Below, piece after piece: positions 1 through 28,470 of a stretch of DNA of 37,023 nt (positions within the stretch are counted from its first letter, which is position 1; every line of letters starts with the position of its first letter). The stretch spans positions 1 to 37,023 of the forward strand of contig CAYFHS010000041.1 in NCBI GenBank assembly GCA_964342815.1, in the 5' to 3' direction. The notes beneath the pieces were generated by a model that ran no database searches, had not been told where the DNA came from, and worked only from the letters and a program-made list of their open reading frames with translations. A program made the position numbers and the translations under genes. Source of the stretch: an uncultured archaeon. Lineage in GTDB: Archaea > Thermoplasmatota > Penumbrarchaeia > JASLWR01.

Positions 1-276
1 GGCTCCGCTTTTCTATTATGTTATGTGCAATGTTGTGTGCAGGACTGCATATAATTACTATTGTTTGCCTATCTGCATGATCTGCCTTTCGTCAAGAATC
101 GGTTGGGTGATGCCCCCGTTTTCCACTTGTGTCGTATCGTCACAGTCTGAGAGTGGTGATGATCTCCGCATATGGGACGGGAGCGTTTTATATTTTTTTT
201 GAGGCTGTTGGGGTTTTTCGTTTTTGCTGTTACCATCGAAATTTATATAATTATTATGTGCAGTACTGCACATAAT
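1..276 (+). repeat. Mosaic repeat block 1: palindrome variant (32-55), 34-bp hairpin motif (123-156), perfect 24-bp palindrome (253-276)
   Basis: ATTATGTGCAGTACTGCACATAAT at 253-276 is a perfect palindrome. 39-157 matches 1601-1719 with about 8 mismatches. 1-29 is identical to 4380-4408. Confidence 0.9.
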
Positions 277-580
277 GAAAGGCGTAATTATCATATTCCG
301 GTTACCTCCTAAAATCAGGAATGCAGAAATCTCGAAGTTCTGCCAAAAGTTCTACGGCCAGGACAGTTCGTCACACAGGGGAAAATATAGATATCACCGC
401 AGAGGCTTACTTGATAGTACCCCTTACCGGAAACTTGCTCGTGGTGTGATAGTACTGCGCGCAATAGATCTTGACGTAGTTGTTGAATTTCTCAACGATT
501 ACACAAACGAGATTCACATACGGGAGATAAAGCTATCTGAGTATGACACGGAATTATTACAAACCGATACTCTTCTGTAA
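275..580 (+). CDS. Unknown 101-aa protein (ORF X1), possibly Cas2/VapD-like ferredoxin fold
   Basis: Intact ORF with a paralog at 4421-4726 (10 of 101 residues differ). The ATG overlaps the end of the palindrome. The fold is only a guess from the hydrophobic pattern. Confidence 0.8.
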   Translation: MKGVIIIFRLPPKIRNAEISKFCQKFYGQDSSSHRGKYRYHRRGLLDSTPYRKLARGVIVLRAIDLDVVVEFLNDYTNEIHIREIKLSEYDTELLQTDTLL

Positions 581-645
581 AAATGTCCAATTATTCCTAA
601 ACTATCTCATCGTAGGGTTATCCGATTCCCTTGAACAATCAATTA

Positions 646-1062
646 TTATCGATCTAATAATACTTTCTCTGCTTCTTTAGGAGTGAGAATAATAACTCTA
701 TCAGTAACAACAGAACTAAATTCCTTGTCGCTGCTAAGAAGATAATCAATGTCTGTAAGCATTCCACAGGCCAATACCGGTGCATCCTTTTTACTGATAA
801 GTTTTATTGCTGAACGGAGATTTCCGATATATTCTTCTTTTTTCTTTACAATGAAGAATGAAATGAATTCATCAAGTCGCGATAACGCATTGTTTCTCGC
901 TTTTCCGGATAATTTTTCTGAAAAATTCCTTCTTAATTCTTCGATTATATAATCACTCAGAACGATGGTATGTTTCTCGATAATAAGATCTAGTAGCATG
1001 GAGACCTTGCCGGAGTGACCAATTGCCGAATACATCGTTGATGAATCCACGAGAATATTCAT
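646..1062 (-). CDS. PIN-domain (VapC-like) toxin
   Basis: Acidic PIN residues in ILVDSS, IIEEL, KKDAPV and SSDKEF. It lies downstream of an RHH antitoxin. The ATG at 1062 was preferred over the ORF-track start at 1086. Confidence 0.85.
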   Translation of the reverse strand: MNILVDSSTMYSAIGHSGKVSMLLDLIIEKHTIVLSDYIIEELRRNFSEKLSGKARNNALSRLDEFISFFIVKKKEEYIGNLRSAIKLISKKDAPVLACGMLTDIDYLLSSDKEFSSVVTDRVIILTPKEAEKVLLDR

Positions 1063-1118
1063 TTGGCGTCCTTGACAAGTCACCACTTGTCAAGTGTGAC
1101 ACGCCGCAAGGTGTGTCT

Positions 1119-1367
1119 TCATCCGAACATTTCCACAAAAAGTCTCTTTCGGACTTCAATCCCCCCTTCCAGAAGTTCTTCTTCTGTTAAACCCTCATCC
1201 TTTATGATCTTTCTTAATTCGGAAAGGGACCTGATCATCTCGGCTTTTCTAACAGCATCCCTTATGAATTCAGCCCGGGAAGGAAAGTCTCCATCTTCGA
1301 TATAACTGTCAATTCTCTTAAGCTCTTCAGGAGGAAATCTAACCTGGATTGATACCATTTGACTCAT
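1119..1367 (-). CDS. Ribbon-helix-helix (CopG-like) antitoxin
   Basis: VSIQVRFPPEELKRID...FPSRAEFIRDAVR is an RHH pattern. It sits directly upstream of the PIN gene. Confidence 0.85.
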   Translation of the reverse strand: MSQMVSIQVRFPPEELKRIDSYIEDGDFPSRAEFIRDAVRKAEMIRSLSELRKIIKDEGLTEEELLEGGIEVRKRLFVEMFG

Positions 1368-1530
1368 ATGATTGTAATTGAATTCAATCACATAAATATC
1401 TTTTGGTTGAAATCGTATAAACATCGATTATGTTTTCATCTTATTCTGAATAATTCTCAAAATTCTGCCACATTCTTATTACCCTCTCACGTTATCTACG
1501 AGTATTGACTATCTCTCCCTATCTGGCAGC

Positions 1531-1896
1531 CGTGTCTCCCATGCCTCTAAACCCCCCCCAACTCAGCCCGGCTCCCCTTGTCCCGTCGCTTTAGTTATGA
1601 GCAGTACTGCACATAATTACTATTGTTTGCCTATCTGCATAATCTGCCTTTCGTCAAGAATAGGTTGGGTGATGCCCCCGTTTTCCACTTGTGTTGCATC
1701 GTCACCGTCTGCGAGTGGTTGCTCTGTGTGATCTACCGGGTAGGAGTGTCTCCCGGTTATGCTCACAGGGCCGTCCGGGATTGTTGGTTTTGATAGGATT
1801 TGGTACTGTGGTTTGATGGTGTGTGATTCTATGGGGTCTGGTGGGTTTGAAGAGTTCTGTAGGTATTTAAGATGTTGTGCGCAGAATGCGCACAAC
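1531..1896 (+). repeat. Mosaic repeat block 2
   Basis: CGTGTCTCCCATGCCT at 1531, palindrome at 1594-1617, hairpin motif at 1685-1718, type II palindrome at 1874-1896. Confidence 0.85.
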
Positions 1897-1988
1897 AGAT
1901 GGGATCGAGGATTGAAAAAAGACGAGATTAAATTGGAAAGTACTATAAGCCGCATCAAACATATATTTTACAGAAGAAAGGTGTCAGA

Positions 1989-2270
1989 ATGGACGTTATA
2001 GGTTTCTTGAGATAAAAGGGAGCTGGCATCCGGGAACGCTACGGAGTCCGTAGGATCGGCGTGTATGGTTCATATTCAACCGGAACTCCGAACCAGGACA
2101 GCGATATCGACATACTCGTCGAGTTCTCTGAACCCACTTTCGATAACTTCATGGATCTTGCGTTCTATCTCGAAGAGGCATTGAAAAGGGAAGTGGATCT
2201 TGTTACTCCAAAAGGTCTGAGCCCGTATCTGCGGCGAACTATCGAAAAAGAGGTGGTCTGGTGTGGATAG
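1989..2270 (+). pseudogene. Minimal nucleotidyltransferase (MNT) antitoxin with premature stop
   Basis: Reads MDVIGFLR*KGAGIRERYGVRRIGVYGSYSTG...DSDIDILVEF, with GS and DxD motifs. In-frame TAA at 2013-2015. Confidence 0.85.
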
Positions 2271-2364
2271 GGATGTGATTTTTCTAAAACACATTCTTGA
2301 TGAATGCCGATTTCTATTGACCAATTGTTACGGTATGACCGTCAGGAGGGGGGCAATGAGGTAA
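2263..2364 (+). pseudogene. Truncated HEPN (DUF86-like) toxin remnant
   Basis: The GTG overlaps the MNT stop. DRDVIFLKHILDECRFLL resembles the N-terminus of MNT-associated HEPN toxins. The frame ends after 33 codons with no RxxxxH motif. Confidence 0.6.
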
Positions 2365-2432
2365 TGGGCTCGGACTGAGGGAGAATTGAAGGATTTGTGT
2401 GATATAATTCAATCTCTAAGAATATTCAAAGG

Positions 2433-2711
2433 TCATTTCTTATAGGCTTTTTTTCTGTGTATCACGGTGGTGATCTTCACTATTTTTTCGGTTTGATTCA
2501 GATCATATAGAATACGATATTTTCCAAGTCGAACTCTGAAGATATCCACATGACCTTTGAGTCGTTTGATATCCACTCCCGGACGCCTATGGAAAGGATC
2601 TACTTCCAGTTCGTCCATTATGGCAATGAATTTTTGGATGATATTTTCCGGGACTTTCTTTAGGTCTTTTTCGACCCTTGCATCTACAAGGACGGTGTAT
2701 GGTCCGACCAC
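2433..2711 (-). CDS. relE: RelE/ParE-family toxin
   Basis: DIKRLKG...FRVRLGKYRILY...HRKKAY pattern, 92 aa, downstream of a small antitoxin-like ORF. Confidence 0.9.
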   Translation of the reverse strand: MVGPYTVLVDARVEKDLKKVPENIIQKFIAIMDELEVDPFHRRPGVDIKRLKGHVDIFRVRLGKYRILYDLNQTEKIVKITTVIHRKKAYKK

Positions 2712-2720
2712 AACATCACC

Positions 2721-2939
2721 CTATGTTGATTGCCTCAACCGCTTTTTAAAATCATCCTTCGAAACAGCCTGAAACGTATGGAGTCGTTCCCGGTGTTTTC
2801 GAACATGCTCTTCGGCCAGTTCTTCCAGGGTTATTGCATCCATGAAATAGGTAAGAAGGTCGTCATAGGTCATCGAACCCATCTTGTAATCATTGAGACG
2901 TTGCTTTGTTTCATCATGAATACTTATCGTAGTGGTCAT
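2721..2939 (-). CDS. Putative antitoxin partner of RelE (72 aa)
   Basis: MTTTISIHDETKQRL...TYDDLL is an RHH-like N-terminus. It ends 9 bp before the relE start. Confidence 0.75.
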   Translation of the reverse strand: MTTTISIHDETKQRLNDYKMGSMTYDDLLTYFMDAITLEELAEEHVRKHRERLHTFQAVSKDDFKKRLRQST

Positions 2940-3078
2940 AATTAAATAAATGTTTTTAATATTTATAATAGTTTCTATTATTACTGTTACTCTGGAAAAC
3001 GCAAATTGAGTTAAGTTTTGTGTTGTCATGATTGGTATGGGAAGGTACATCGCGGGATACTGAGGAGGAGTGAGAAGA

Positions 3079-3137
3079 TTATCCTACCTTTTCCCGACTC
3101 TCACCGATCGCCTTTGCCACATCGACCTTATTGATCT
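3079..3137 (-). pseudogene. Remnant of the 3' end of an AbrB-type antitoxin gene
   Basis: 55 of 59 bp are identical to 6602-6660. Confidence 0.8.
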
Positions 3138-3242
3138 AAATATTTTTACAAATCATTATTCTCCAAATAACGATTATGCATTACGTACTAAACCCCCCCC
3201 CGATATCTGCAATTATAGATCATATCCACCCTTGTAGCTAGT

Positions 3243-3648
3243 CGTGTCTCCCATGCCTGCTAACTCGATCATGGGATCGTCCGGCTCTCAAGGCTTTTGT
3301 ATTATGTTATGTGCACATAATTTTCTATTACTATTGGTTGATACCCCTCATTTCCCACTTGCGTCGTTTCGTCACGGTCTGCGAGTTGTGATTATCTCTG
3401 CATTTGGGGCGGGAGGGCCATATATTTGTCTTGAGACTGTTGGGGTTTTAGGTTATAGGGTTTGGGTTGTTTTTGGTTATGTGCAGTACTGCACGTAATT
3501 TCTTATTACCAATCTCTGTATCCCCGTTTTCCACTTGTGTCGTATCGTTAAGGTCTGCGAGTGGCGGTTATGTACTTGTTTGGGATAGGGTGATATTATG
3601 CATAAATTCGAGTTTAAAGAAAGATATTGTGCGTATTATATACACAAC
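3243..3648 (+). repeat. Mosaic repeat block 3
   Basis: CGTGTCTCCCATGCCT at 3243, collapsed palindrome at 3307-3320, hairpin motifs at 3355-3388 and 3531-3564, palindrome at 3476-3499, degenerate type II palindrome at 3626-3648. Confidence 0.9.
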
Positions 3649-3687
3649 CGGCTTTCTTCCTTTACTTCAATAAATATATTTCGACTC

Positions 3688-3701
3688 AAAAAGATTAAAT
3701 A
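3688..3701 (+). promoter_or_regulatory. Archaeal BRE/TATA-like promoter of hicBA, probably leaderless
   Basis: AAAAAGA-TTAAATA ends about 24 bp upstream of the ATG at 3725. Confidence 0.55.
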
Positions 3702-3724
3702 TTGATTTCGTGTTTATTACACAC

Positions 3725-3931
3725 ATGAGAAAATACACCATGATTATCGAGAGGGACGAAGAAGAATGGTTTATCTCCGAGGTGGTGGAATTGCCAGGGT
3801 GCCATACTCAGGCTAGGAGTTTGGATCAGTTGATCGAACGTACAAAAGAGGCGATTGAAGTTTATCTCGCGAGTATGGACGAACCTATTGTTTTTGATGA
3901 ATTTGTAGGTGTTCAACAAGTTGAGGTGTGA
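3725..3931 (+). CDS. hicB: HicB-family antitoxin (short form)
   Basis: YTMIIERDEEEWFISEVVELPGCHTQARSLDQLIERTKEAI is the typical HicB pattern. Confidence 0.9.
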   Translation: MRKYTMIIERDEEEWFISEVVELPGCHTQARSLDQLIERTKEAIEVYLASMDEPIVFDEFVGVQQVEV

Positions 3932-3934
3932 GTG

Positions 3935-4162
3935 TTGACGTAACTGCCACGATTAACAGGCAGGGAATTATCGAAAATCGTGGGAAAATTCGGCTTTGTA
4001 CATATCAGAACCATCGGTAGTCATATGCTTTTTAAACATCCGGATGGTAGAAGAACTACAATCCCCTGCCATTCTGGTGAAGTGATCGGTCCTGGACTGT
4101 TGAACAAGATAATAAAGAAAGATCTGAGGATGACCAGAGAGGAATTTATAGAAAAAATATAA
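3935..4162 (+). pseudogene. hicA: HicA-family mRNA interferase with a stop at codon 3
   Basis: TTG ACG TAA CTG CCA CGA... reads MT*LPRLTGRELSKIVGKFGF...GSHMLFKHPDGRRTTIP, with the GSH motif present. A restart at GTG 3980 is possible. Confidence 0.8.
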
Positions 4163-4422
4163 AACTCCCCCTTTCCCCAAACTCACCTCACAACACAACC
4201 CGGCTCCCCTTGCCCCATCATCAACAAAAAATTACGAGACCCCCATTCCCCCTTGCTTCACTTTACTATCGTCCTGCGAGTGGTGATTATCTCCGCACTT
4301 TCGGGCGGGAGCGTTTTATATTTTTTTTGAGGCTGTTGGCGTGTCTCCCATGCCTGCTAGCTCGTTCACGGGTTCGTCCGGCTCCGCTTTTCTATTATGT
4401 TATGTGCAGTACTGCACATAAT
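4163..4422 (+). repeat. Mosaic repeat block 4 (left part)
   Basis: CCCGGCTCCCCTTG motif, partial hairpin motif CTGCGAGTGG at 4274-4283, CGTGTCTCCCATGCCT at 4340, palindrome at 4399-4422. Confidence 0.85.
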
Positions 4423-4726
4423 GAACGGCGTAATTATCATATTCCGATTACCTCCTAAAATCAGGAACACTGAGATATCGAAGTTCTGCCAGAAGTTCTA
4501 CGGCCAGGACAGTTCGTCTCATGGAGGGAAATATCGCTATCACCGTAGAGGCTTACTTGATAGTATTCCATACAGGAAACTTGCTCGTGGTGTGATACTA
4601 CTGCGCTCGGCGGATCTTGATGTAGTTGTTGAATTTCTCAAAGATTACACAAACGAGATTCACATACGGGAGATAAAGCTATCTGAGTATGACGGGGAAT
4701 TATTACAAACAGATAATCTTTTGTAA
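4421..4726 (+). CDS. Unknown 101-aa protein (ORF X2), paralog of X1
   Basis: About 90% amino-acid identity to 275-580. The ATG at 4421 overlaps the palindrome end exactly as in X1; the ORF-track start at 4397 is an extension. Confidence 0.8.
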   Translation: MNGVIIIFRLPPKIRNTEISKFCQKFYGQDSSSHGGKYRYHRRGLLDSIPYRKLARGVILLRSADLDVVVEFLKDYTNEIHIREIKLSEYDGELLQTDNLL

Positions 4727-4736
4727 CAGACTTTCT

Positions 4737-4989
4737 TAATTATTTATTACCAATCTCTGTGTACCCGTTTTCCGCTTGTGTCGTATAGTTATAGTCTGCA
4801 AGTGGCGGTTATGCGTGGGTTTAGGGCAGGGTGCGCCGTATTATAATTCTCACTATGGTGAAATTGGACGTGTGAAATTCTTGGAATGGACGGAGTAATT
4901 TGTATGTGGTGTAAGTGCTTCAAGAAGATCGGTGTGCTATGAAAAACTTTGGTTTTAACGAAAGATGTTGTGCACGAGTAGTGAACAAC
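4737..4989 (+). repeat. Mosaic repeat block 4 (right part)
   Basis: 4737-4813 is colinear with 3496-3572. Hairpin motif at 4772-4805, type II palindrome at 4967-4989. Confidence 0.85.
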
Positions 4990-5001
4990 CACCAGGAGGC
5001 A

Positions 5002-5409
5002 TTATATTATTAAATGTCTGATTTCACCTGTATTGTAGACCAAAACCGAATTCTGACCATTTTTCAGGCTTTTGTCATTTGACCATATCGGAATATGAAG
5101 TTTCAATGCGAGAGCGATGTAGGGAACGTCTTTCACGTCCGGTGAGATTTTTATTGCTTCCTCTACATAGGGCTGGATCTCTTCGATGGGAACGAGTATA
5201 ATCCTTCGCCTGAGAACCTCCAATAATTCATCGAAATCGTCATTGCTTCTTCTGGTTTTTTTCATCAAATATACACGATATTCTTCAAACTCGTAAAATA
5301 GATAATCTGGAGCATGGAGTTGAAAATCCTCTCTGAATAAAAGCTCAGAGGTTAGACCTTCAGTGATCAGGGCTGCAAATAGAATATTTGCATCAACAAT
5401 GAGGTCCAT
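5002..5409 (-). CDS. PIN-domain (VapC-like) toxin
   Basis: LIVDANIL, YEFEE, DVKDVPY and WSNDK supply the acidic PIN residues. Confidence 0.9.
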   Translation of the reverse strand: MDLIVDANILFAALITEGLTSELLFREDFQLHAPDYLFYEFEEYRVYLMKKTRRSNDDFDELLEVLRRRIILVPIEEIQPYVEEAIKISPDVKDVPYIALALKLHIPIWSNDKSLKNGQNSVLVYNTGEIRHLII

Positions 5410-5419
5410 AAAGGCTCCC

Positions 5420-5644
5420 TCATTCCCCGATATAATGCTTGGCAAGTTTCTTGTTCAGTTCGGCACCCAGCTTAATTGCTTCCTCTTCCGTCAGTGTGCT
5501 CTGTGCCTTGAATCGACGTAAGAATTCCAAATCTATTATCTTTTGCCTGATTGCCTGGCGTGCAACTTCCGACCAGTTGATTTCAGGGAACTCTTCCATT
5601 CTCTGTTTCATTTCATTGGGGACTGCAAGGGTCATGGTTACCAT
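5420..5644 (-). CDS. VapB-like RHH antitoxin
   Basis: MVTMTLAVPNEMKQRMEEFPEINWSEVARQAI matches an archaeal antitoxin pattern. It lies upstream of the PIN gene. Confidence 0.85.
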   Translation of the reverse strand: MVTMTLAVPNEMKQRMEEFPEINWSEVARQAIRQKIIDLEFLRRFKAQSTLTEEEAIKLGAELNKKLAKHYIGE

Positions 5645-5826
5645 TGTCTTAATCTCCTTGAACTGTGTAATTATATATATTATGTGTAATTATATAAATC
5701 TATTTCTGATATTTTCCTCGATTTTTTTCGATAAATAAACCATCGTTATGCATTCTCAAATTCGTGAAAACCGATATTTTATTGGTTTATGCGAAGTCGT
5801 GTTCTTCGTTTGTACTATCATGTGGC

Positions 5827-6135
5827 CGTCTGCCCCATGCCTCCAAAATCACCTCACAACTTCGTCCGGCTCCCCTTTGCCCATCACCAAAGGGAGCACA
5901 TTTTTTATTTTAAAATGGGCGACTTAGAAGTGAACCGAAGGTTTACCTTCGCTAAGTACGATGCCCCCATTCCTACTTTTGTCGTATCGTCACAGTCTGC
6001 GAGTGGTGATCATCTCCGCATTTGGGGCGCGAGCCATATATTTGTCTTGAGGCTGTTGGTTTTTTTTATATGTGTTTGGTTATGTGCAGTACTGCACGTA
6101 ATTTCTTATTACCAATCTCTGTATCCCCGTTTTCC
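5827..6135 (+). repeat. Mosaic repeat block 5
   Basis: CGTCTGCCCCATGCCT at 5827, hairpin motif at 5973-6006, palindrome at 6079-6102. About 58 bp around the palindrome are identical to 3472-3529. Confidence 0.9.
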
Positions 6136-6208
6136 ACCTTTTTCATCAGTTCACGGTCAGCGATCCGTTTTAATAATCCCCGATCATCTGCACTTGAAGT
6201 AAAACTTC

Positions 6209-6598
6209 CTACAATTCGTTTGCACCCCGAATTTCTATGCCCATGTATCTCTTGAGATCACGGAGGTGTTTATCCCCCGATACAATAAGATCTACTTTTC
6301 CCGAATAGGCAGCTTCTAGTATCATATTATCTGTAGGATCCTCTTTGATGATGTCGATCTTCCTTGTTGGAAAAACAACTTCTGAAAATATAAGAATCTC
6401 TTCAACGTATGCATTGATCTTGTCGTTCGGAACTTCAAATTTCTCAAGAAGTACCCTTTCTACCTCGTCTAATATCGAAGGTGACGTTATTAACTGGTAA
6501 TTGCCTTTTTTACAATCATATAGAACTCAACGTTCATTTCCGTTCCAGAAAAAAGCGGAGATATAAATATTCGTATCGAGTACCAATTTCTTGTACAA
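6209..6598 (-). pseudogene. PIN-domain toxin with in-frame TGA (absent from the ORF track)
   Basis: TTG start after GGAGG. Reads MYKKLVLDTNIYISAFFWNGNER*VL...EDPTDNMILEAA...IVSGDKHL. TGA at 6527-6529; 130 codons in total. Confidence 0.9.
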
Positions 6599-6601
6599 AA
6601 C

Positions 6602-6868
6602 CTATCCTCCCTTTTCCCGACTCTCAGCGATCGCCTTTGCCACATCGACCTTTTTGATCTTTTTCCGCTTTGCGAATTCTTCGCCCCATTTCAAGAGTGC
6701 TTCGAATTCATTTTTGGAAGGAACATTCAACCTTTTCAACACTATGGTATCATCGTTTCCAAACATTGCGAATATTTCACCCGAGGATATTCCAAGTAAT
6801 TCCCTTAATCTTTTTGGAACAACTATCTGACCCTTCGATGACATTTTCGTGATGGCCACTTCACTCAT
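6602..6868 (-). CDS. AbrB/MazE/SpoVT-family antitoxin
   Basis: TKMSSKGQIVVPKRLRELLGI..GE motif, directly upstream of the PIN pseudogene. Confidence 0.9.
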   Translation of the reverse strand: MSEVAITKMSSKGQIVVPKRLRELLGISSGEIFAMFGNDDTIVLKRLNVPSKNEFEALLKWGEEFAKRKKIKKVDVAKAIAESREKGG

Positions 6869-6961
6869 TGTTAGCACCTACTTATAGTAAGATAATAAGA
6901 CTATCTTACTATTTAGTTTTATTGAATATCTTGTTTTTTTTTTTTAAAAACGCTCCTTTAA

Positions 6962-7045
6962 TCCTTTTCCTCCCCCAAACTCTGCAAATTCTTTTCATCC
7001 TCAATCCCCACTCCCCGGCTCTCCGTCCACTTCGCTCCCCATCAA
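6962..7045 (+). repeat. Degenerate partial repeat (C-rich tract plus CCCGGCTC motif)
   Basis: CCCCCAAACTC...CCCCGGCTC resembles 4170-4215 and 1550-1580. Confidence 0.45.
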
Positions 7046-7099
7046 TATTGGTGTGGTGCTGTACCGGTACTTCGTGACTATCTAACATAATTTTCATAA

Positions 7100-10000
7100 C
7101 TAATACTGCCGATAAGGGCTCGGCCCAAGGGCACGGAGGTCTTCAATGGTGTCTCTGATGATCTGTGCGAACTTTGGACCCTCTGATGCAGATACCCACT
7201 CCAGCCGGTATCTCTCAGGCTCCAGTTCGAAATCTTCCAGCAATAGATCTATTGTATCGGCACGGGCCTTGGCCTTCAGATTTCCCTCGAGATAATGGCA
7301 GTCCCCGGGATGGCAGCCGCACATGAGAACACCATCAGCTCCGGCCAGGAGTGTCTCTATAACAATGGTGGGGTGCACCATCCCTGAACACATTACACGA
7401 ATGATCCTGACGTTCGGGGGGTACTGAAATCTGGCAACTCCCGCAAGGTCCGCACCGGTATATGAGCACCAGTTGCAGCAGAAGGCAACAAGCCTTGGCT
7501 CGAAATCCTCTTCAGGCGGCCCCTCGCCGGTTATTTCCACGGCTGTTTTACCCTGCGACATTATCTGCTCATACGTGAATCCTCTTACATACACTCCTAA
7601 CTTCGGACATGTTGCCATACAGACTCCGCAGCCCTTGCACAGTGCTTCATTGACCTCAACAGTCTTTTTTATCTGACCGTCTCTCATGTATTCAACAAGC
7701 GTTATTGCATTGAATGGACACGGGTCCACACAGTATGCGCATCCGTCACAGTACTTGTCTACAACAAATGACAGCCTCGGTGATTTTTCCATTGTGTCAT
7801 GAGATATCAGGGTGCACGCTCTGGATGCAGCAGCAAAGGCCTGAGATATTGTTTCAGATATGGATCTGGGTGAATGCGCAAGTCCCGCCATGAAAATCCC
7901 CTCCGTGGCAAAGTCAACAGGCCTGAGCTTGACATGAGCCTCTAAAAAGAAACCATCGGTGTTTGTGGGGACCTTTAACAATTTTGCTAGTTCTTCATTG
8001 GTCTCCGGAGGAACCATTGCGGCGCTGAGCACCAACAGGTCTGGATTAATTGCCAGTACCTCGTCCAGTATTTTATCTCTGATCCTGACCTGCAGTACAC
8101 CATCAACACTTTCAACCAACGGTCTTCCATCCACGTCGTATCTGATGAAGATGACTCCTCTCTCCCTTGCCTCTTCATATGCCTTTTCCTTAAATCCATA
8201 AGTCCTGATATCTCGGAATATGATAAAGATCTGTGTGTCGGGGTCCGCATCCTTTATCTTTATGGCATTTTTTACAGCTTCCGTACAGCAGACCCTGCTG
8301 CAGTAAGGCCTCTCTTCATCACGGGAACCCACGCACTGTATCATTACCACCGTTTTACCTACAGGGCCGCCGTCCGCTATTTTCTTTTCAAGCTCCAGTT
8401 GTGTAATTACTTTTTCGTTTTTACCATACAGATATTCATCAGGCTTGAGTTCGTTGGCCCCGGTAGCAACTATGATTGTTCCGTGTTCGATCATTGATTC
8501 GGAAATCCCATCACGGACCGTGCTTTCATAATTTCCCACGTATCCATTGATAGCCTTTACTGTTGAGTCGGTAAATATCTTGATATTCGGGTTCTCTTCA
8601 ACCCTATTTATCAGTGAAGCAAGATATCCCTGTATGTTATCATTCTCCAAAGTATAATGAAGATTTATCAGGTTGCCTCCTAGATGCCCCTCTTTTTCAA
8701 CAATATATGCAACATATCCCTGATCTGCTATTGCCAGTGCAGCTGTCATTCCTGCAAGCCCTCCTCCGATTATCAGTCCCTTCTGTATAACGGGCCGGTA
8801 TATCGGTTCAAGAGGCTCAAGCAGCCTGGATTTCGTTACTGCAATTCTAACAAGGTCTTTAGCCTTGTCTGTTGCCATGTCCGGAACATTCATGTGAACC
8901 CACGAGCACTGATCCCTGATATTGGCCATCTCAAATAGATACGGATTAAGGCCGGCTTCTCTGAGCATGCTCTGGAATAACGGTTCATGGGTCCTTGGTG
9001 TGCATGAAGAAACGACAACCCTGTTGAGGTTGAGTTCTGTTATCTTTTCTGTTATCTTTTTCTGTGTATCCTGGGAACAGGTGTACAAATTATCCTCGGT
9101 ATATACCACGTTCGGAAGTGTTTTTGCATATTCTACAATTCCCGGAACATCCAGATACCCTCCAATATTAAAACCACAGTTGCATACAAAGACCCCGATC
9201 CTGGGTTCCTGCCCTTCAACACTGATCTCGGGAGGGTATTGCTTCCCAACAACAAGCGAATCCCTTTCTTGGGATATCAATGCACTTGCCTCCGCAGCAG
9301 CTCCGGATCCCCCTATTACGGTTTCAGGAATGTCTTTTGGCCCGGCAAAGGCCCCGCAGACAAAAACACCTTTTTTTGATGTTTTGACCGGAGTAAGCTC
9401 CGATGTGGAACAGAAATTGTATTCATTGAGTTCTATGTCCAGTATCTCGGACAGCTTTTTTACTTCTTCAGGGGGCTCAAATCCGGTACACAGTACTACC
9501 AAGTCGAATTCCTCTTCAACTATTTGCCCCTCGGTTTCATATCGTATTGCTAGATTTTTGCTTTCTTCTAATTCTTCAACCGATGCAACCCTGCAGTTCA
9601 CAAAATTCACACCGCCCTCGTTTTTAGCCCTTTCATAATAGGCTTCAAAGCCCTTCCCAAAGGTTCTCCTATCTATGTAAAATATTGTAGCTTCAAGAGT
9701 TTTCACATGCTCTTTAGCAATCACCGCTTCTTTTATGGCATATGTGCAGCAAACAGATGAGCAGTAATTGTTTCCGCGGTGCCTGTCTCGAGAACCCACA
9801 CAGTTGATCCACGCAACCTTTTTGGGTTCTGATTCATCTGATGGCCGAATGACATGTCCCTGATAGGGTCCGGATGCTGAAAGGATCCGTTCAAATTCCA
9901 GTGATGTCAACACGTTTGCGAATCTCTTGTAGCCGTATTCGTTTGTTCGTCTTGCATTGAACATCTCAAAACCTGGAGCCATGATTATGGATCCGACATT

Positions 10001-11959
10001 GATGTTTTCAAAAGTATCTGTCATGCTGAGGTCGATGGCATCGGCTTCACAAGCGGCTTGACATTGAAGGCATTCACAACAAATTGAACAAGATAGACAC
10101 CTCTTAGCTTCGGCAATTGCTGTATCTTCGTCATAACCGAGTTCAACTTCTCTGAAATCCTTGATCCTTTCTTCAGGAGGGGCCATGGGCATATGTTTTC
10201 TTGCCTCCGCAGCCACCTCTTCTCTGAGATGATCGATTGCATATTCTTCAGCACAGCGCCCCTCCTTTAGATCCCTGCCTGAGATATATCTGTCTATTGA
10301 CTCTGCAGCATCAAATCCGTCTCTTACAGCTTCAATAACCGAGGCCGGTCCTCTCCTGATATCTCCCCCTGCAAATACTCCTTCAATACTGGTTTCCAGG
10401 GTGATCTCTTTTGCCTTGATAGTGCCCCATGGATTTGCTTCTATTTCATCAAAGCCATTTCTATTTGGGCGCTGCCCTATGGCAATGATCACCGTATCGC
10501 AGTTAAATTGCGGCCCGGCTTCATCTGAGAACTCCGGTGCGAAATTGTGGTCATCATCATAGACCTTTGTGCAGTTTACCGTTTGAAGTCCTGTAACTTT
10601 TCCGCCCTCTGCATTGATGGTTTTGGGACCCAGTGATCCGTGGATGCTTATTCCCTCGTCTTCACCCTCCTCGATCTCCCACGCATGTGCCGGCATTCGA
10701 TGGCGGCTTGATAGGTCCCTTGTCTCCAGGCAAACGATATCTACCTTTTCAGCCCCGAGACGGACTGCAGATCGAGCACAGTCCATAGCTACATTGCCCC
10801 CCCCGATCACAATGATCCTCTTTCCGAATCCCATAGGTGCCTTTTCCCCTTTGGCATCTCTGAGGAACGGGATACCGTAGAGAACCCCACTGCTGTCAGC
10901 TCCGTCTATCTTTAATCTGGCTGGATCCTGATATCCAATTGAAATAAAGATTGATCCGTATTCTTTTTTCAGGTCCTCAAAACTGATATCTCTGCCAACT
11001 CTCGTTCCTGTTTTTATCTCGATCCCTTCATCAAGTATCCTGTTTATGTCAAACATCGTTGTTTTTTCATCGATACGGTAATTGGGCATACAGGATGTCA
11101 TCATGCCTCCCGGTTTATCCGCAGCATCTATTACTGTTACCGGATATCCTCTTTTTGTGAGCTCCCGGGCACAGGTCAATCCTGCAGGTCCAGCACCGAT
11201 AACTGCTATCTTTTCATCTTTTAAAGGGATGAGTTTTTCAGCTTTCCCCTCACCATTTTCCATGACCCAGTCTGCTGCAAACCTTTTTAGCGGCCTGATA
11301 GCAACAGGTTCATCAACAGTTCCCCTGAGACACTGGTCCTCGCAGGGATGATGGCAGACACGCCCGCAAATTGCTGGAAACGGGTTTCTCTCTCTTACAA
11401 GGTTAAGAGCTTCGGCATACTTTCCCATTCCGATGAGCTGGATATATCCCTGTGCATTGACAAACGATGGGCATGTAACCTTGCACGGTGATTTTTTGTC
11501 CAACTTGTCAACAACACATTTGTTCGGAATTGCCTGTGGATATAATTTGTATATGGCGTGCCTGATTGCCAGGCATTCGTCAAATTCGGAATCCAGATCA
11601 ACCGGACAGACAGTTGTACATTCCCCGCATCCTGTACATTTTTCAAAATCTACAAATCCCGCCTTCCTACGTATCCGGACATCGAAGTTTCCTGCCTCTC
11701 CACTTACCTCTTCAAGCTCAGAATACGTGATCATCTCGATATTCGGGTGCCTTCCCACATCCACGAGTTTAGGCGACATCGTACACATTGCACACTCATT
11801 TGTCGGAAACGTTTTGTCAAGCTGAGCCATGTGCCCGCCTATGGATGGTTTTTTCTCCAGAAGATACACCTTAAAACCGCTCTCTGCCAGATCAAGTGCT
11901 GACTGCATACCGCCTATTCCACCGCCCACCACCAGTACTGCACCAACTTTGTCTCCCAT
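7100..11959 (-). CDS. hdrA: Large HdrA/HdrL-type flavo-iron-sulfur protein with inserted NAD(P)H-binding domain and C-terminal MvhD fusion
   Basis: GGGIGG...LDKTFPT motif; GltD/NfnB-like insert (CGRVCHHPCE, GAGPAG, GGGNVAMD); two CVGSRD...YCS.VCC motifs; ferredoxin motifs; MvhD motifs CNWCSY, CSG and GCHPGDCHY. GGAGG precedes the ATG at 11959. Confidence 0.93.
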   Translation of the reverse strand: MGDKVGAVLVVGGGIGGMQSALDLAESGFKVYLLEKKPSIGGHMAQLDKTFPTNECAMCTMSPKLVDVGRHPNIEMITYSELEEVSGEAGNFDVRIRRKAGFVDFEKCTGCGECTTVCPVDLDSEFDECLAIRHAIYKLYPQAIPNKCVVDKLDKKSPCKVTCPSFVNAQGYIQLIGMGKYAEALNLVRERNPFPAICGRVCHHPCEDQCLRGTVDEPVAIRPLKRFAADWVMENGEGKAEKLIPLKDEKIAVIGAGPAGLTCARELTKRGYPVTVIDAADKPGGMMTSCMPNYRIDEKTTMFDINRILDEGIEIKTGTRVGRDISFEDLKKEYGSIFISIGYQDPARLKIDGADSSGVLYGIPFLRDAKGEKAPMGFGKRIIVIGGGNVAMDCARSAVRLGAEKVDIVCLETRDLSSRHRMPAHAWEIEEGEDEGISIHGSLGPKTINAEGGKVTGLQTVNCTKVYDDDHNFAPEFSDEAGPQFNCDTVIIAIGQRPNRNGFDEIEANPWGTIKAKEITLETSIEGVFAGGDIRRGPASVIEAVRDGFDAAESIDRYISGRDLKEGRCAEEYAIDHLREEVAAEARKHMPMAPPEERIKDFREVELGYDEDTAIAEAKRCLSCSICCECLQCQAACEADAIDLSMTDTFENINVGSIIMAPGFEMFNARRTNEYGYKRFANVLTSLEFERILSASGPYQGHVIRPSDESEPKKVAWINCVGSRDRHRGNNYCSSVCCTYAIKEAVIAKEHVKTLEATIFYIDRRTFGKGFEAYYERAKNEGGVNFVNCRVASVEELEESKNLAIRYETEGQIVEEEFDLVVLCTGFEPPEEVKKLSEILDIELNEYNFCSTSELTPVKTSKKGVFVCGAFAGPKDIPETVIGGSGAAAEASALISQERDSLVVGKQYPPEISVEGQEPRIGVFVCNCGFNIGGYLDVPGIVEYAKTLPNVVYTEDNLYTCSQDTQKKITEKITELNLNRVVVSSCTPRTHEPLFQSMLREAGLNPYLFEMANIRDQCSWVHMNVPDMATDKAKDLVRIAVTKSRLLEPLEPIYRPVIQKGLIIGGGLAGMTAALAIADQGYVAYIVEKEGHLGGNLINLHYTLENDNIQGYLASLINRVEENPNIKIFTDSTVKAINGYVGNYESTVRDGISESMIEHGTIIVATGANELKPDEYLYGKNEKVITQLELEKKIADGGPVGKTVVMIQCVGSRDEERPYCSRVCCTEAVKNAIKIKDADPDTQIFIIFRDIRTYGFKEKAYEEARERGVIFIRYDVDGRPLVESVDGVLQVRIRDKILDEVLAINPDLLVLSAAMVPPETNEELAKLLKVPTNTDGFFLEAHVKLRPVDFATEGIFMAGLAHSPRSISETISQAFAAASRACTLISHDTMEKSPRLSFVVDKYCDGCAYCVDPCPFNAITLVEYMRDGQIKKTVEVNEALCKGCGVCMATCPKLGVYVRGFTYEQIMSQGKTAVEITGEGPPEEDFEPRLVAFCCNWCSYTGADLAGVARFQYPPNVRIIRVMCSGMVHPTIVIETLLAGADGVLMCGCHPGDCHYLEGNLKAKARADTIDLLLEDFELEPERYRLEWVSASEGPKFAQIIRDTIEDLRALGPSPYRQY

Positions 11960-11960
11960 G

Positions 11961-12863
11961 TCAGGCACCTCCGTTTGCTTGGACCTTTTCAAGCAGGGGT
12001 GAAACCTTAACCTGGTTTATCTTTACCGCAAGGTCCTTTTTGGGGTCCAGCCCCATGGCGATTCCCAGAAGCTGTGAATAAAATAATACGGGGATATTGT
12101 ATTCTGCATCAAAACTTGTTTCTATTGTGGGTTGGTACTCGTCATACATAATGCTGCAGAACGGGCAGAGCAGTGTCATTGCATCTGCTTCAGCTGTTTT
12201 GATATTGTCCAGCTTTTCTTTGACCATCTTTACAGAAGTGTCTTCGGATATTGAAAGTATACCGCCGCCGCAGCACTGGAGCCTGTTTTTGTATCTTACG
12301 GAAGTAGCTCCTGTTACCTCGATCAGTTTGTCCAAACTCACAGGGTTTATGGGGTCGTCGAAGCCGTCAAATATCGTTGAGGGTTTTATGTAATGGCACC
12401 CATAATGGGGTGCGATGGTAAGACTGGTGAGAGGATTTGTAACGGCCTCTTTTACCTTGTCCAATCCGACATCTTCATACAGCACCCTGGCAAAATGTTT
12501 TACCTTGGTATTTCCCTTGTATTCAAGGTTTGAACCGCCTAGATAATCGTTTATCTTTTTTTGTTCCTCTGTGCCTCGAGGACTGCTCAGATGTTTCTGG
12601 GCCTTTGTCAGGTGTCCCGTACAGGCACTGCAAAGTGTCATGATGTCAAGTCCCTGGGCCTCCGCAAGTGCAAGATTTCTTGCAGCCAACGTTAAACCTG
12701 TCTCATGATGAACTCCTGCTATAGGAAAACCACAGCATGCGAAATCGGTTATGTCAACAATTTCAATTCCAAGCCTATCTGCAACCTTTCTTGCTGAGAG
12801 TTCATAGTTCAATCCCCTTACTGGGACTGTACAACCGAGAAACAATGCATATTTACTCATCAT
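11961..12863 (-). CDS. hdrB: Heterodisulfide reductase subunit B-like protein
   Basis: Two CCG domains (ACCGF...CSAC and CCGGG...CPFC); located between hdrC and hdrA. Confidence 0.93.
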   Translation of the reverse strand: MMSKYALFLGCTVPVRGLNYELSARKVADRLGIEIVDITDFACCGFPIAGVHHETGLTLAARNLALAEAQGLDIMTLCSACTGHLTKAQKHLSSPRGTEEQKKINDYLGGSNLEYKGNTKVKHFARVLYEDVGLDKVKEAVTNPLTSLTIAPHYGCHYIKPSTIFDGFDDPINPVSLDKLIEVTGATSVRYKNRLQCCGGGILSISEDTSVKMVKEKLDNIKTAEADAMTLLCPFCSIMYDEYQPTIETSFDAEYNIPVLFYSQLLGIAMGLDPKKDLAVKINQVKVSPLLEKVQANGGA

Positions 12864-13356
12864 TGTCTCCTCCAACTATGTCCATAACTCCAGTTTTATC
12901 CATGAGAGATTTGATGTCTGGAATCTCTGCTTTTAGAAGGGGAATGTCTTTTTTTTCCCGGACTTTATTTTCAAACTCAGATACCTCCAGCAGTCTTCCA
13001 TATTTTTCCAGCAATTCCAAACTGGCCATGTGTGCATCTGGTAAATGTCCATTCTTTACTGCGATATTTCTGATAGCACCCATAAGGTCAGTGATCTTCA
13101 CATCACGGGGGCACAGTTCATAACAATTGTAGCATCCCGAACACAGCCATATAAAATCACTTTTCAACACCACTTCTTTCATTCCCAGAATCACCATTCT
13201 GATTATCTTTCTGGGATTGTATTCAGGATTCGTTGCAAAAACAGGGCATGAAACTGTGCATGTGCCGCATGCAAAACAGTTCTTTATATTCTCCCCTCCA
13301 TGAACTTTTGCAACTTCGGACTTAAAATCAGGGTTCATTTCGTGTACATTGATCAT
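12853..13356 (-). CDS. hdrC: Heterodisulfide reductase subunit C-like protein
   Basis: CFACGTCTVSCP and CSGCYNCYELCP give two [4Fe-4S] motifs. It overlaps the hdrB start. The start could be 13368. Confidence 0.93.
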   Translation of the reverse strand: MINVHEMNPDFKSEVAKVHGGENIKNCFACGTCTVSCPVFATNPEYNPRKIIRMVILGMKEVVLKSDFIWLCSGCYNCYELCPRDVKITDLMGAIRNIAVKNGHLPDAHMASLELLEKYGRLLEVSEFENKVREKKDIPLLKAEIPDIKSLMDKTGVMDIVGGDNDE

Positions 13357-13559
13357 TTCCTTCCACATCCAGATGTTTCAAATCGAAACAATGCAAATAG
13401 TTTTTTATTATTTCGACATATGTTTTGTTTTTTGTTATTTCAGACATCTGTTCAAATATTTTTTTATGGACAACTGGACTTTCTGTTTTTCCTATCTCCA
13501 TTCCACTTGCACTGCATTTCTACCCCACGCGCTCGCCCATTCCCTGCGTCGTCATGGTG

Positions 13560-13722
13560 CAGCGGCGCCTCCGGTGGAGTGAGCGGGTGTTTGGGGACGG
13601 GTATGGCGGTTTGTGTGTTTTGGTATTGGGTTTGGGGTTTGGGTTGTTTTTGGATTGATTTTGGTCATGTGCAGTACTACACGTAATTCTTATCATTTGC
13701 CTCCCGTCATATAATTAATGAT
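13560..13722 (+). repeat. Mosaic repeat block 6
   Basis: G/T-rich tract like 3442-3476, palindrome variant at 13664-13687, and a downstream ~50 bp shared with block 7. Confidence 0.8.
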
Positions 13723-13799
13723 CTGCCGGTTTACACCAGTGTCGATTTGGGGATCGTCCTGCGAAAGGTTACTATGTGCGGGTTTGGAGCAGGGATATT

Positions 13800-14738
13800 T
13801 CATTTATTTGCAGATACGGTTTTATCGCCATACTCCCTCAAAGCTCTCCTTGTGGAATGCCATATTCCACCCGCTTTCGTGGCTGCAAGTTCCCCCTGCC
13901 TCGCCCGCAGCGAAAGATATTCCTGTGAATATTTTGAATACTTTGAGAGAACCTTTAGTGGTATAAGTTCATCTTCACCGCCTGTTACAGATAAGAATTC
14001 TAGCAGAGACTCTTCCAGGGCTTTTGCAAGAAAATTGGTAAATGGCCCAAGATCTCCGGAATCTGCTTTTCTGAGAAACGCATAATATTTTCTTCGATCT
14101 TCCTTTCTTAGGATTATTGGGCTAAATCCGCGCTCTAAAAGAAACCGATTTGTCAATAATCTCGCCACCCTGCCGTTCCCATCGGAAAACGGATGGATCG
14201 CAACGAATCCGTGATGAAGGAATGCCGCCATATCTATAGGATTTCTGTCGCCTCCCTTTATCGTCTTGAACAGCCCATCCATCATCTTTGGTATCTTTGC
14301 AAAATCGGGGGGTCTCTTCACAGCTCCCGTGATCTGAACGTTGTGAATCCTGTATTTTCCGGCATCGAGCAATATTCCCCTGGCTACAACCTCGTGCAGA
14401 TCCTGTATCGAGATATGATTTATTTCTACCCTACCCTTGGCCATTTCCTCAATTAATTCATATGCGTGAGAGTTGTTAACCGCTTCAAGGTGTTCTATCA
14501 ATGATTTGCCGCCTATTGTGATGCCCTCTTCAATAACTACTTTTGTTTCTTGTAAAGTAAGGGTGTTGCCCTCAATAGCATTAGAATGATATGTATGTCT
14601 TGTCCGATGATCCTGTGAAAGTATCTCTATCAGATCAGGGTGAAGTGGTCTTAGTTCATTGACTTTCTGAAATTTTTTCATTATTCTATTAAACAATTTA
14701 TTATTTACTAACGTATCGGTATCGCTCATTTTCATCAA
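13800..14738 (-). CDS. Fic/DOC-family protein with putative C-terminal DNA-binding domain
   Basis: HPFSDGNGRVAR Fic catalytic motif and N-terminal SNAIEGN motif. The C-terminal YSQEYLSLRARQG segment looks HTH-like. Confidence 0.92.
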   Translation of the reverse strand: MMKMSDTDTLVNNKLFNRIMKKFQKVNELRPLHPDLIEILSQDHRTRHTYHSNAIEGNTLTLQETKVVIEEGITIGGKSLIEHLEAVNNSHAYELIEEMAKGRVEINHISIQDLHEVVARGILLDAGKYRIHNVQITGAVKRPPDFAKIPKMMDGLFKTIKGGDRNPIDMAAFLHHGFVAIHPFSDGNGRVARLLTNRFLLERGFSPIILRKEDRRKYYAFLRKADSGDLGPFTNFLAKALEESLLEFLSVTGGEDELIPLKVLSKYSKYSQEYLSLRARQGELAATKAGGIWHSTRRALREYGDKTVSANK

Positions 14739-14844
14739 TAGCCGATATGCATTTGGGTATACTTAATAATATCGGCATCATTAATTATTTGGGAGTGCCG
14801 ATACTATTCTCTGTCTCCTTCTGTCTTTTCCACCTCATTAAGGT

Positions 14845-14975
14845 TCCCCTTTGGCTCATCACCCACATTATGGCAGTACTGCACGTAATTATTATCATTC
14901 GCCTGTCGTCATATAATTAACGATACCCCCTTCCCACAGTATCGTACCGTAACGGCCTGCGAGTAGCGGCTGTGT
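14845..14975 (+). repeat. Mosaic repeat block 7
   Basis: TTCCCCTTTGGCTCATCACC resembles 5872-5890. Palindrome with a 1-bp deletion at 14867-14889 and a divergent hairpin motif ending CTGCGAGTAG at 14966. Confidence 0.8.
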
Positions 14976-15101
14976 GCGGGATTTCGAGAAGGGCTGCTTG
15001 ATATCCTAAGCAATCTTCCTGGACGAATGGACGAACATGAAAAGTTTTGGATTTATTATACGCAATTTATTAAATAGATTGATAATAATAAGTCGACTAC
15101 C

Positions 15102-15875: not shown

Positions 15876-16051
15876 GGAGATACTGGATATTTTTTTAATA
15901 ATTCATACCAATGTTAAATTACATTCTCTTGCTCCCATCGTGCACCATCAGAAAGTGGTGACAAATACGTTCTTTCCCCTAAATTCCTAAATGATTCTTA
16001 CGATACCCTTTTCCTCTCTGTCCCGTATTTGGGACATTCAATACAAACTAC

Positions 16052-17929: not shown

Positions 17930-18212
17930 ATATACAAATCGTATAATAAATTATTGCTGCCAGAATGTATGCCGCCTTCAAACTATCAACTCCTAAAAGA
18001 AGGAAAGAGCATTGATCGCGACATCCTTTCGGCACCGCATCATCAACTCCTTCCTCTCCGATCTCCTCATTCCTCCTTGATTCACAATCATTCGGTCTGC
18101 CATTGCTTACTATATACGGTCTTTCGAGTGGGATGCGGGTCCGCCCCTGATTGGAAAATAATGTGTATAATTTTAAATATTTAAAAATATAAATCCATTC
18201 CCGAGGTGTACT

Positions 18213-18689: not shown

Positions 18690-18691
18690 GA

Positions 18692-28273: not shown

Positions 28274-28470
28274 TTTTACACCTTTTCGTTGGTGTGGCAA
28301 ATGGGCCGAAAAATTTTCAATTGAGTATGAAATAATCTTATATAACTCTATTATCTAATGAACCACTGTGAAATTTATATTATTCAGTGGAATTCTCGAG
28401 AAAGACGACCTGACAAATGTGATTTCAAAGAGAAAAACATATCATGGATTACAAAATGAGATATTAAAAG

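Follow-up and report, generated by a model that had tools for sequence, protein, structure and literature searches.

The window analysed here (the whole stretch of 37,023 nt, bases 1–37023 of contig C41 of an uncultured archaeon, whose 4.35-Mb assembly comprises 116 contigs and is 89% complete) contains, from base 1 to about 18140, an array of gene modules separated by co-oriented copies of one composite repeat. The array is a fast-changing row of toxin–antitoxin (TA) pairs and other accessory modules at one chromosomal site in one archaeal genus, apparently of the Thermoplasmata, and its layout is like that of a bacterial integron, without integron sites and without an integrase. The interpretation that we lean towards, with somewhat less than even confidence, is a genus-specific accretion array anchored upstream of a hydrolase gene and a megasynthase gene. 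In the following, C41 and similar labels denote contigs of this genome, G001 a genome of the same genus, L035 and L036–L038 metagenome contigs, and L113 and L114 loci of further relatives.

The general order of elements in the array is cargo, part a of the repeat, an optional palindrome module, part b, an optional second palindrome module, and cargo again. A module consists of a header, i.e., the promoter of a gene here called ORF104, followed by the cargo and a non-coding repeat unit made of parts a and b (the R-unit). Two headers carry an intact ORF104, and at least six have a short linker in place of the gene. Palindromes that stand alone in the window often head an intact ORF104 in relatives (upstream of HicBA in L113 and L114, and upstream of MNT/HepT in L036 and in a 14.3-kb contig), indicating that an ORF104 promoter opens every module, whether or not the gene itself is there. 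The cargo is mostly a self-promoted TA pair in either orientation, and otherwise a Fic gene, an hdr operon or an HtpX-like gene. The R-unit, aligned over 19 units from three organisms and five from G001, is about 150 nt long, non-coding and unstructured, and ends each cassette. Part a is C-rich and reads GTGTCTCCCATGCC and then CCGGCTCCCC, while part b starts with GATGCCCCC, contains the nearly invariant core GTCAC-R-GTCTGCGAG-Y-GG and ends in GGG-N-AGG. The palindrome, 22–24 bp long, is found at 253–276, 1595–1616, 3477–3498, 4400–4421, 6080–6101, 13665–13686 and 14868–14888, with degenerate copies at 21–54 and 3307–3320; it lies either between a and b or 3′ of b and a G/T-rich stretch, and ORF104 or the conserved linker follows it.

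An earlier reading made from the letters alone (the sequence-only reading) had described six TA pairs and a Fic gene bounded by one co-oriented repeat family. The repeat family was confirmed, with every copy on the plus strand, as were its three bracketing pairs: 32–157 and 1594–1719 (92% identity, spacing 1562), 3468–3560 and 6071–6163 (87%, spacing 2603), and, around the Fic unit, 13671–13722 and 14873–14924 (88%, spacing 1202). All six pairs and the Fic gene are present; however, only four of the pairs are intact, the PIN gene at 6212–6583 and the MNT/HepT pair having decayed.

The turnover of the row was observed by comparison with relatives. The hydrolase/megasynthase flank (18213–28300) also borders the arrays of L035 and G001. 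L035, from a Joint Genome Institute (JGI) metagenome, shares the flank and the repeat family and has an identical palindrome, but a different row of modules (ORF104, PIN-AbrB, ORF104, a DUF3368/UPF0175 TA pair and Fic), with nothing at the positions of the hdr operon and of the cargo at 15102–17929. The European Nucleotide Archive (ENA) contigs L036–L038 carry a PIN_2 cassette, PIN-AbrB, ORF104, MNT/HepT and then further modules, and a 14.3-kb ENA contig is made up solely of such modules, more than ten of them. Cassettes common to relatives are 82–87% identical and have discrete ends, the shared limits being those of ORF104, PIN-AbrB (6204–6941), Fic (13783–14816), MNT (1746–2333) and the PIN_2 antitoxin (5479–5725). 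The Fic cassette at 13783–14816 is 87% identical to L035:3884–4917, and the PIN-AbrB cassette is also found in L035 and L036–L038 with different neighbours. Modules have thus been gained, lost, duplicated and reordered among close relatives, and the comparison of cassette order that the sequence-only reading had proposed shows that the cassettes differ, or stand in another order, in relatives that have the same flank. In L035 the UPF0175/DUF3368 pair and ORF104 are on opposite strands, while in the ENA contigs they share a strand, showing that the same type of cargo can take either orientation relative to the headers.

In G001, contig C102 is collinear with window 18605–29572 (which contains the megasynthase), and the row past the megasynthase consists of a DUF433 and PIN-like gene, an AAA ATPase, RelE with a ribbon-helix-helix gene, and an antitoxin with PIN. 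These modules are separated by 5–6 co-oriented copies of a 96-nt repeat, which shares its end motifs with the b unit of the window (ATGCCCCC, GTCG and GGGGCAGG) and lacks the middle; the motifs ATGCCCC and GGGGCA are common to the ends of two diverged repeat families. The far side of the G001 array holds an insertion sequence (IS) of IS1-like type and housekeeping genes, and no integrase. Beside the G001 megasynthase only the 3′ end of the hydrolase gene remains (L024:14314–14450). The G001 units run in the opposite direction relative to the megasynthase flank, which, together with the IS1-like element at the far end, suggests an inversion of the entire array. In two other genera of the same family, ordinary genes adjoin the megasynthase, and there is neither an array nor repeats at that site.

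The sequence-only reading had placed the last of the motifs before 15 kb. This limit did not hold, as a decayed unit at 18033–18137 aligns to the unit at 4232–4345 with a score of 28, against 16 for the best of 200 shuffles, and its 5′ part matches the G001 unit type (score 18 vs 15). The decayed unit lies just upstream of the conserved hydrolase promoter. At the matching place, L035 has a b unit directly before the hydrolase gene with nothing between, showing that window 15102–17929 is cargo inside the array. Both this segment and the hdrACB-like operon (7100–13368) lie between repeat units, the latter between a part a at 6955–7045 and a b-type unit at 13530–13610, a subtype also present in L113, and from this placement the operon is most probably array cargo. 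The operon, comprising an hdrA fusion, hdrB and hdrC, has a guanine-plus-cytosine content of 44–50%, vs 38–43% in the TA part of the array, and its only counterpart in G001 is a copy of 66–72% identity on another contig. It looks like an extra hdr operon, i.e., a metabolic operon carried as cargo.

As its own alternative the sequence-only reading had named a family of the kind of miniature inverted-repeat transposable elements (MITEs) or of the repetitive extragenic palindromic (REP) kind that colonised a TA hotspot, and it had suggested looking for scatter of the repeats across the genome. Such a family could account for units that are short, non-coding, repeated and mosaic. However, in the whole 4.35-Mb assembly the palindrome and three longer motifs (at most 2–3 mismatches) match on C41 only, which excludes chance and rules out a genome-wide MITE/REP family; two short motifs (13 nt, one mismatch) also match other contigs. 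A sequence-only covariance model of the b unit gave nine matches in this genome, all on C41, and among 100 relatives it gave multiple copies only in G001 (five, at one locus), with one marginal match in each of three other genomes. The diverged G001 repeat likewise matches only its own array within the G001 genome, and a BLAST search with block C (at 3243–3592) against 60 relatives gave no match. When all eight repeat blocks (A–H) were compared with the genome by BLAST, the only sequence found elsewhere was a 60-nt hairpin insert (5891–5958) that separates part a from part b in block F. This insert has copies on three other contigs (two on C25, one each on C3 and C7), occupies the same place in L036 (about 3640–3700) and may itself be a small MITE. 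The R-units show a single orientation and a single locus, with no terminal inverted repeats or target duplications seen, and the genome contains no Y1 HUH transposase and no DUF4277 transposase, all of which makes colonisation by a MITE/REP-like family very improbable. The exact palindrome pattern had no match in the genome contig collection and two in metagenome contigs, both by chance. One of these contigs, L034 (Ga0302325_10345201, 2.4 kb), consists almost entirely of tandem ATTATGTGCAGYRCTG-like units and has the look of a eukaryote-type satellite. A search for the b-core pattern in viral contigs returned four matches, all in unrelated coding sequence.

Base 1 of C41 falls within a repeat, and thus there is nothing to the left of the window; the first 29 nt of the contig are identical to 4380–4408, showing that the assembly broke on the repeat. 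This break could hint at an artefact of assembly or binning, with repeats collapsed or made chimeric in a metagenome-assembled genome (MAG). However, independent assemblies (JGI 3300009320, several ENA runs and G001) have the same architecture and share cassettes of 82–87% identity, and an artefact is therefore the least credible of the explanations considered.

ORF104 encodes a protein of about 100 amino acids with an invariant FYGQ...GKY-x-Y-x-R-x-G motif, and the palindrome lies between its TATA box and its ATG. The protein belongs to no Pfam, NCBIfam, PHROG or PADLOC family, and the Atlas gave only unnamed archaeal clusters. Homologues were collected as a set of 60 proteins and a set of 44 genome loci (Thermoplasmata, Methanosarcinales, Methanobacteriota and other MAGs), the closest named ones being in Thermoplasmata MAGs. 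Many distant homologues are single-copy and stand beside ribosomal or tRNA-modification genes, and their loci have one palindrome each, directly 3′ of a TATA-like box and ending at the ATG. At least nine paired positions were found in 53% of 36 ORF104 promoters, vs 2.8% of random 72-nt windows. The dyad centre lies 9–12.5 nt 5′ of the ATG, and 3′ of the TATA box, in 21 of 32 distinct ORF104 promoters. The outer TTATG/CATAA is conserved and the inner pairs covary. Position and covariation together point to the 24-bp palindrome being the ancestral operator of the ORF104 promoter. That the palindrome is a recombination site specific to the array, as the sequence-only reading would imply, is contradicted by its presence, with covarying arms, at distant single-copy homologues.

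The fold of ORF104 was predicted with a pLDDT of 92.6 as a ferredoxin-like alpha/beta domain to which no solved structure is clearly related; structure searches returned only generic ferredoxin-like matches (Foldseek E-value at best 0.017, VIA Z at most 7). A homodimer model reached an interface score (ipSAE) of 0.52, vs 0.01 for the best control, with contacts agreeing to at least 95% between runs and a partner pLDDT of at least 82. Of proteins solved as pairs, 20 of 30 reached the mark of 0.52, and of those solved as single chains 1 of 23. The modelling supports a dimer, and we infer that ORF104 acts as a dimer that binds DNA at the palindrome and thereby represses its own promoter. Palindromes of a second class (TTGTGC, 9 nt, GCACAA), preceded by AAGAT, occur at 1873–1897, 3624–3650 and 4964–4990; the copy at 1873 has a TATA-like box upstream and lies inside the MNT/HepT cassette common to L036. 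These palindromes are similar to ORF104-type operators, and a different regulator may act on them.

ORF104 homologues were also seen head to head with a transposase of the DUF4277 and DDE_Tnp_1 type (L039:6297–8294; L046:1–1194 and L047:1–1110). In Candidatus Haladaptatiplasma halalkaliphilum (L046, L047), this pair forms a duplicated 1.1–1.2-kb segment at contig ends, where ORF104 seems to be carried within an IS element. One could therefore ask whether ORF104 is itself mobile or mobilising, with the palindrome as its target or end, so that the gene would home beside palindromes and seed the repeat headers. The filled and empty sites at 4400–4837 and 3477–3592 differ by exactly the coding segment beside the palindrome, the empty form of palindrome plus linker is old and common to L113, and the predicted ferredoxin-like fold, with its invariant tyrosines, recalls those of Cas2 and HUH enzymes; the transposase neighbours in L039 and Haladaptatiplasma would fit as well. 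Nevertheless, we consider mobility of ORF104 unlikely, given that distant homologues occur as single copies among housekeeping genes, with one palindrome exactly at the place of a promoter operator, that the protein has no HUH motif and no significant structural match, and that the G001 array has R-units but no ORF104.

The features that define integrons were then sought in the repeats. One co-oriented site per cassette and content that differs between strains were both observed. However, the R-units are not attC-like imperfect inverted repeats that fold as hairpins: 13 units folded as single-stranded DNA gave z values of −1.3 to +1.35 against shuffles, and the RNAalifold energies were 0.0 and −2.35 kcal/mol for the alignment's two strands, with no consensus structure. 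The R-unit as a structured RNA or DNA element was accordingly rejected for want of folding support, and Rfam at gathering thresholds had no match in the window, L035, L036 or L024. By eye, words like GTTGGGT, recalling the R″ (RYYYAAC) and R′ (GTTRRRY) core sites, could be spotted in only a few units, and L035 and G001 do not conserve them. No dif-like sites (two 11-bp arms around a 6-bp spacer, in alternating orientation) were found, the only dyad being that at the promoter, with 9-bp arms and a 4–6-bp centre. A tRNA scan of the window found none, and so there is no tRNA-type attachment (att) site.

The R-unit was also considered as a relic of coding sequence, with short open frames on both strands; however, a one-base indel between genomes shifts the frame, showing that it is non-coding. 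An origin-recognition-box-like element, a C/D-box sRNA and a G-quadruplex were likewise weighed by eye for the R-unit and dropped. On the minus strand, an open frame across the b unit and linker (58–294 and 1620–1958) ends in ...VENGGITQPILDERQIMQIGKQ just before the palindrome and could be the tail of a fossil gene, a frame that is not kept in L035 or between genomes. The R-units have no likeness by eye to the tails of the megasynthase and hydrolase genes, and BLAST of the blocks found no parent in the genome, a comparison that does not cover sequence 5′ of the contig start.

No recombinase is encoded in the window, as the sequence-only reading had stated, and none lies beside the G001 array, both flanks of which are assembled. 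A search for IntI (TIGR02249) in this genome, itself 89% complete, gave only Xer-like matches below the cut-off that omit model positions 169–233. Four tyrosine recombinases are encoded in the genome, all on contigs other than C41. That on C26, whose 75%-identical orthologue is confined to the genus that bears the array and which alone among the four has an orthologue in G001, was tried as the recombinase of the array and rejected as the tRNA-Thr-adjacent integrase of an ordinary integrated element with no linkage to the array. This 410-aa enzyme has a C-terminal zinc ribbon and lies directly 3′ of tRNA-Thr(TGT) both here (C26:51795–53163; L101:6795–8163) and in G001 (C82; L102:5974–7340), and the genes 3′ of it vary between the two genomes, probably as parts of an integrated element. 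The recombinases on C82 and C91 of the present genome have no orthologue in G001–G003.

Of the integron-analogous array with non-attC sites that the sequence-only reading had proposed, the integron-like layout, the turnover and the lack of an attC fold therefore stand, whereas dedicated shuffling machinery gained no support, no linked recombinase having been found. Since this genome yielded no IntI, HUH or linked recombinase, the R-units have no attC fold and the palindrome appears to be an operator, a dedicated cassette-shuffling system stays a matter of inference.

Homologous recombination between repeats fits the data at least as well as a dedicated system would, and it is, if tentatively and at a little under even odds in our judgement, our preferred account of the turnover. 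General homologous recombination and gene conversion between co-oriented repeats would be the engine: modules would loop out as circles between repeats and reinsert at any other repeat, strains would exchange modules by double crossover at repeats, no dedicated integrase would be needed, and the TA modules would keep the row stable, as they do in the superintegron of Vibrio. Consistent with this account are the similarity of paralogues within a genome, the right halves of b units, which group by genome, the decayed terminal unit and the lack of a linked recombinase. The DNA identity of ORF104 copies is 90% within the window, 96% within L035 and 82–87% between genomes; judged by such comparisons, headers and R-units within one genome are closer to each other than to their orthologues, which suggests concerted evolution.

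Several observations weigh against homologous recombination as the whole explanation. By itself it leaves the first arrival of new cargo between R-units unexplained, and an inter-unit identity of 60–90% over 80–200 nt makes a poor substrate for it. In addition, four arrays and two diverged repeat families regularly show one unit per cassette, the halves to the left and right of a nearly invariant core reassort, and cassettes recurrently start 0–35 nt past the 3′ end of the b unit; regular units, an invariant core and clustered cassette starts are the traces expected of a site-specific crossover. With the left end of the array unassembled and a genome that is 89% complete, a recombinase may simply have been missed.

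These traces would be accounted for by an integron analogue served by a trans-acting recombinase, for which the R-unit would be the true site, with the crossover at or beside the core and circles being excised and reinserted. The enzyme could be XerA or a different tyrosine recombinase whose gene lies elsewhere or at the end of the array that is unassembled, and the genome has four tyrosine recombinases to choose from. The co-oriented single unit per cassette in four arrays, the core kept nearly invariant in 19 units from three organisms, the reassorting b halves with cassette starts clustered just 3′ of the b unit, the ATGCCCC and GGGGCA ends kept in two diverged repeat families and the high diversity of the cargo all agree with it. 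However, no recombinase adjoins any array, including that of G001 with both flanks, IntI was not found in the genome, the units have neither an attC-like fold nor a dif-like architecture, the terminal unit, which is the expected insertion point, is decayed, and one type of TA pair takes either orientation with respect to ORF104. A trans-acting recombinase of this kind is therefore a serious but doubtful possibility. In its fullest form, to which we give a similarly low degree of belief, the array would be a lineage-private archaeal cassette platform, integron-like but built of unrelated parts, in which an autoregulated ORF104-promoter header opens each module, the R-unit closes it, strands are exchanged at the core by a recombinase encoded elsewhere, and whole operons are captured along with TA pairs.

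The individual features of the array, in window coordinates, begin with block A (1–222, +), which holds the end of a part a (1–20), a degenerate palindrome with a doubled half-site (21–54), a linker and a b unit (111–187). A perfect 24-bp palindrome (253–276) follows just 3′ of a TATA-like box, its last two bases being the first two of the ATG of ORF104-1 (275–580, +), whose 101-aa product, conserved in archaea, matches no Pfam family, has a ferredoxin-like fold and is predicted to form a homodimer. The first TA cassette (646–1424, −) encodes a PIN toxin (646–1086, with an MNILVDSS start at 1062) and a ribbon-helix-helix antitoxin (1119–1424). Block B (1529–1751, +) comprises part a (1529–1593), a palindrome with one mismatch (1595–1616), a linker and a b unit (1673–1751). 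In the decayed MNT/HepT cassette (1746–2343, +), MNT (1989–2267) has an in-frame TAA, HepT (2263–2343) is cut after 27 codons, and the second-class palindrome at 1873–1897 lies in the leader. A further TA cassette (2433–3050, −) consists of a ParE toxin (2433–2711) and an antitoxin (2721–3050, the longest open reading frame), beyond which a 58-nt fragment of an abrB antitoxin gene (3080–3137, −), 95% identical to 6603–6660, is what remains of a lost PIN-AbrB cassette.

The first part of block C (3243–3592, +) contains part a (3243–3305), a truncated palindrome (3307–3320) and a b unit (3341–3419), and the second a G/T-rich stretch, a palindrome (3477–3498), a linker and a partial b unit (3514–3592). 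The next TA cassette (3725–4162, +) is HicB (3725–3931) with HicA (3980–4162). Block D (4167–4421, +), with a part a variant (4167–4225), a b unit (4233–4316), part a (4340–4397) and a palindrome (4400–4421), precedes ORF104-2 (4421–4726, +), which has 90% DNA identity to ORF104-1. Block E (4727–4990, +) has a linker, a partial b unit (4755–4837) and a second-class palindrome (4964–4990), and is followed by a TA cassette (5002–5644, −) of a PIN_2 toxin (5002–5445) and a VapB-like antitoxin (5420–5644). Block F (5820–6138, +) starts with a part a variant (5820–5890) and the hairpin insert (5891–5958), and continues with a b unit (5957–6036), a palindrome (6080–6101), a linker and a b-unit stub. 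In the PIN-AbrB cassette (6212–6877, −), PIN (6212–6583) has an in-frame TGA, while the AbrB/MazE-type antitoxin (6602–6877) is intact.

The lone part a at 6955–7045 (+) is C-rich, with a CCGGCTC motif, and its b partner is 6.5 kb away, across the hdr cargo (7100–13368, −), which is composed of an hdrA-like fusion (7100–11992), hdrB (11961–12875) and hdrC (12853–13368). Block G (13530–13791, +) consists of the b-type unit (13530–13610), a G/T-rich stretch, a palindrome (13665–13686), a linker and a weak b unit (13720–13791). After the Fic-domain gene (13800–14738, −), block H (14830–14998, +) shows an a-like stretch, a palindrome with a one-base deletion (14868–14888), a linker and a b unit (14923–14998). 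The last cargo encodes a 257-aa protein of no known family (15102–15875, +), which its sequence suggests is membrane-like, and a 625-aa HtpX-like protease (16052–17929, −). The decayed terminal R-unit (18033–18137, +) is the fixed end of the array, and the conserved flank follows with a Bact_hydrolase gene (18213–18689, +) and a gene for a 3202-aa megasynthase (18692–28300, −) resembling polyketide and fatty acid synthases.

Among known systems, the array is closest in behaviour to sedentary chromosomal integrons and clusters of attC sites lacking integrases (CALINs), such as the Vibrio superintegron with its Vibrio repeat (VCR) sites. Both occupy a single chromosomal locus with one co-oriented, species-typical repeat per cassette, contain many self-promoted TA cassettes, differ in content and order among close relatives, and have repeats that are uniform within one genome but diverge from species to species. 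Unlike integrons, the present array has no IntI in the genome and no adjoining recombinase, its R-units are not imperfect palindromes, do not fold and have no conserved R″/R′ core sites, each module has a promoter header with the ORF104 operator, and some cargo is a multi-gene operon. The pdif modules of Acinetobacter plasmids are likewise small accessory modules, often TA pairs, that lie between short sites in varied contexts; however, their sites are 28-bp XerC/XerD sites in alternating orientation, whereas the units here are about 150 nt long and co-oriented, and the only dyad (9-bp arms with a 4–6-bp centre) is part of a promoter. Accretion of cis-mobilisable elements of the integrative and conjugative element (ICE) family is similar in that att-like direct repeats part successive insertions at a fixed site and the elements have no integrase of their own. 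It differs in that the array has no linked parent element or integrase, its site is neither a tRNA nor a gene end, and its modules are 0.5–1.5 kb long.

The archaeal integrons published so far are, to our knowledge, attC arrays of the canonical kind, most of which lack an integrase. Attachment sites of the attC type were reported in the integrons of 75 archaeal MAGs from nine phyla (Ghaly et al. 2022, PMC9668308), a paper whose main text does not contain the string "Thermoplasmat", and we found no literature on non-attC TA arrays of the present kind in archaea beyond those attC integrons.

ORF104 represents a widespread, unnamed archaeal family with a co-evolving palindromic operator, and is thus a candidate new family of small DNA-binding regulators. 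The array shares the population behaviour of integrons, i.e., one locus, private repeats and fast, TA-rich turnover, without the parts that define them, and it carries metabolic cargo in the form of an extra hdrACB-like operon. If a dedicated mechanism exists, the array would represent a new gene-capture system; if homologous recombination suffices, it would mean that integron-like evolvability can arise from repeats alone.

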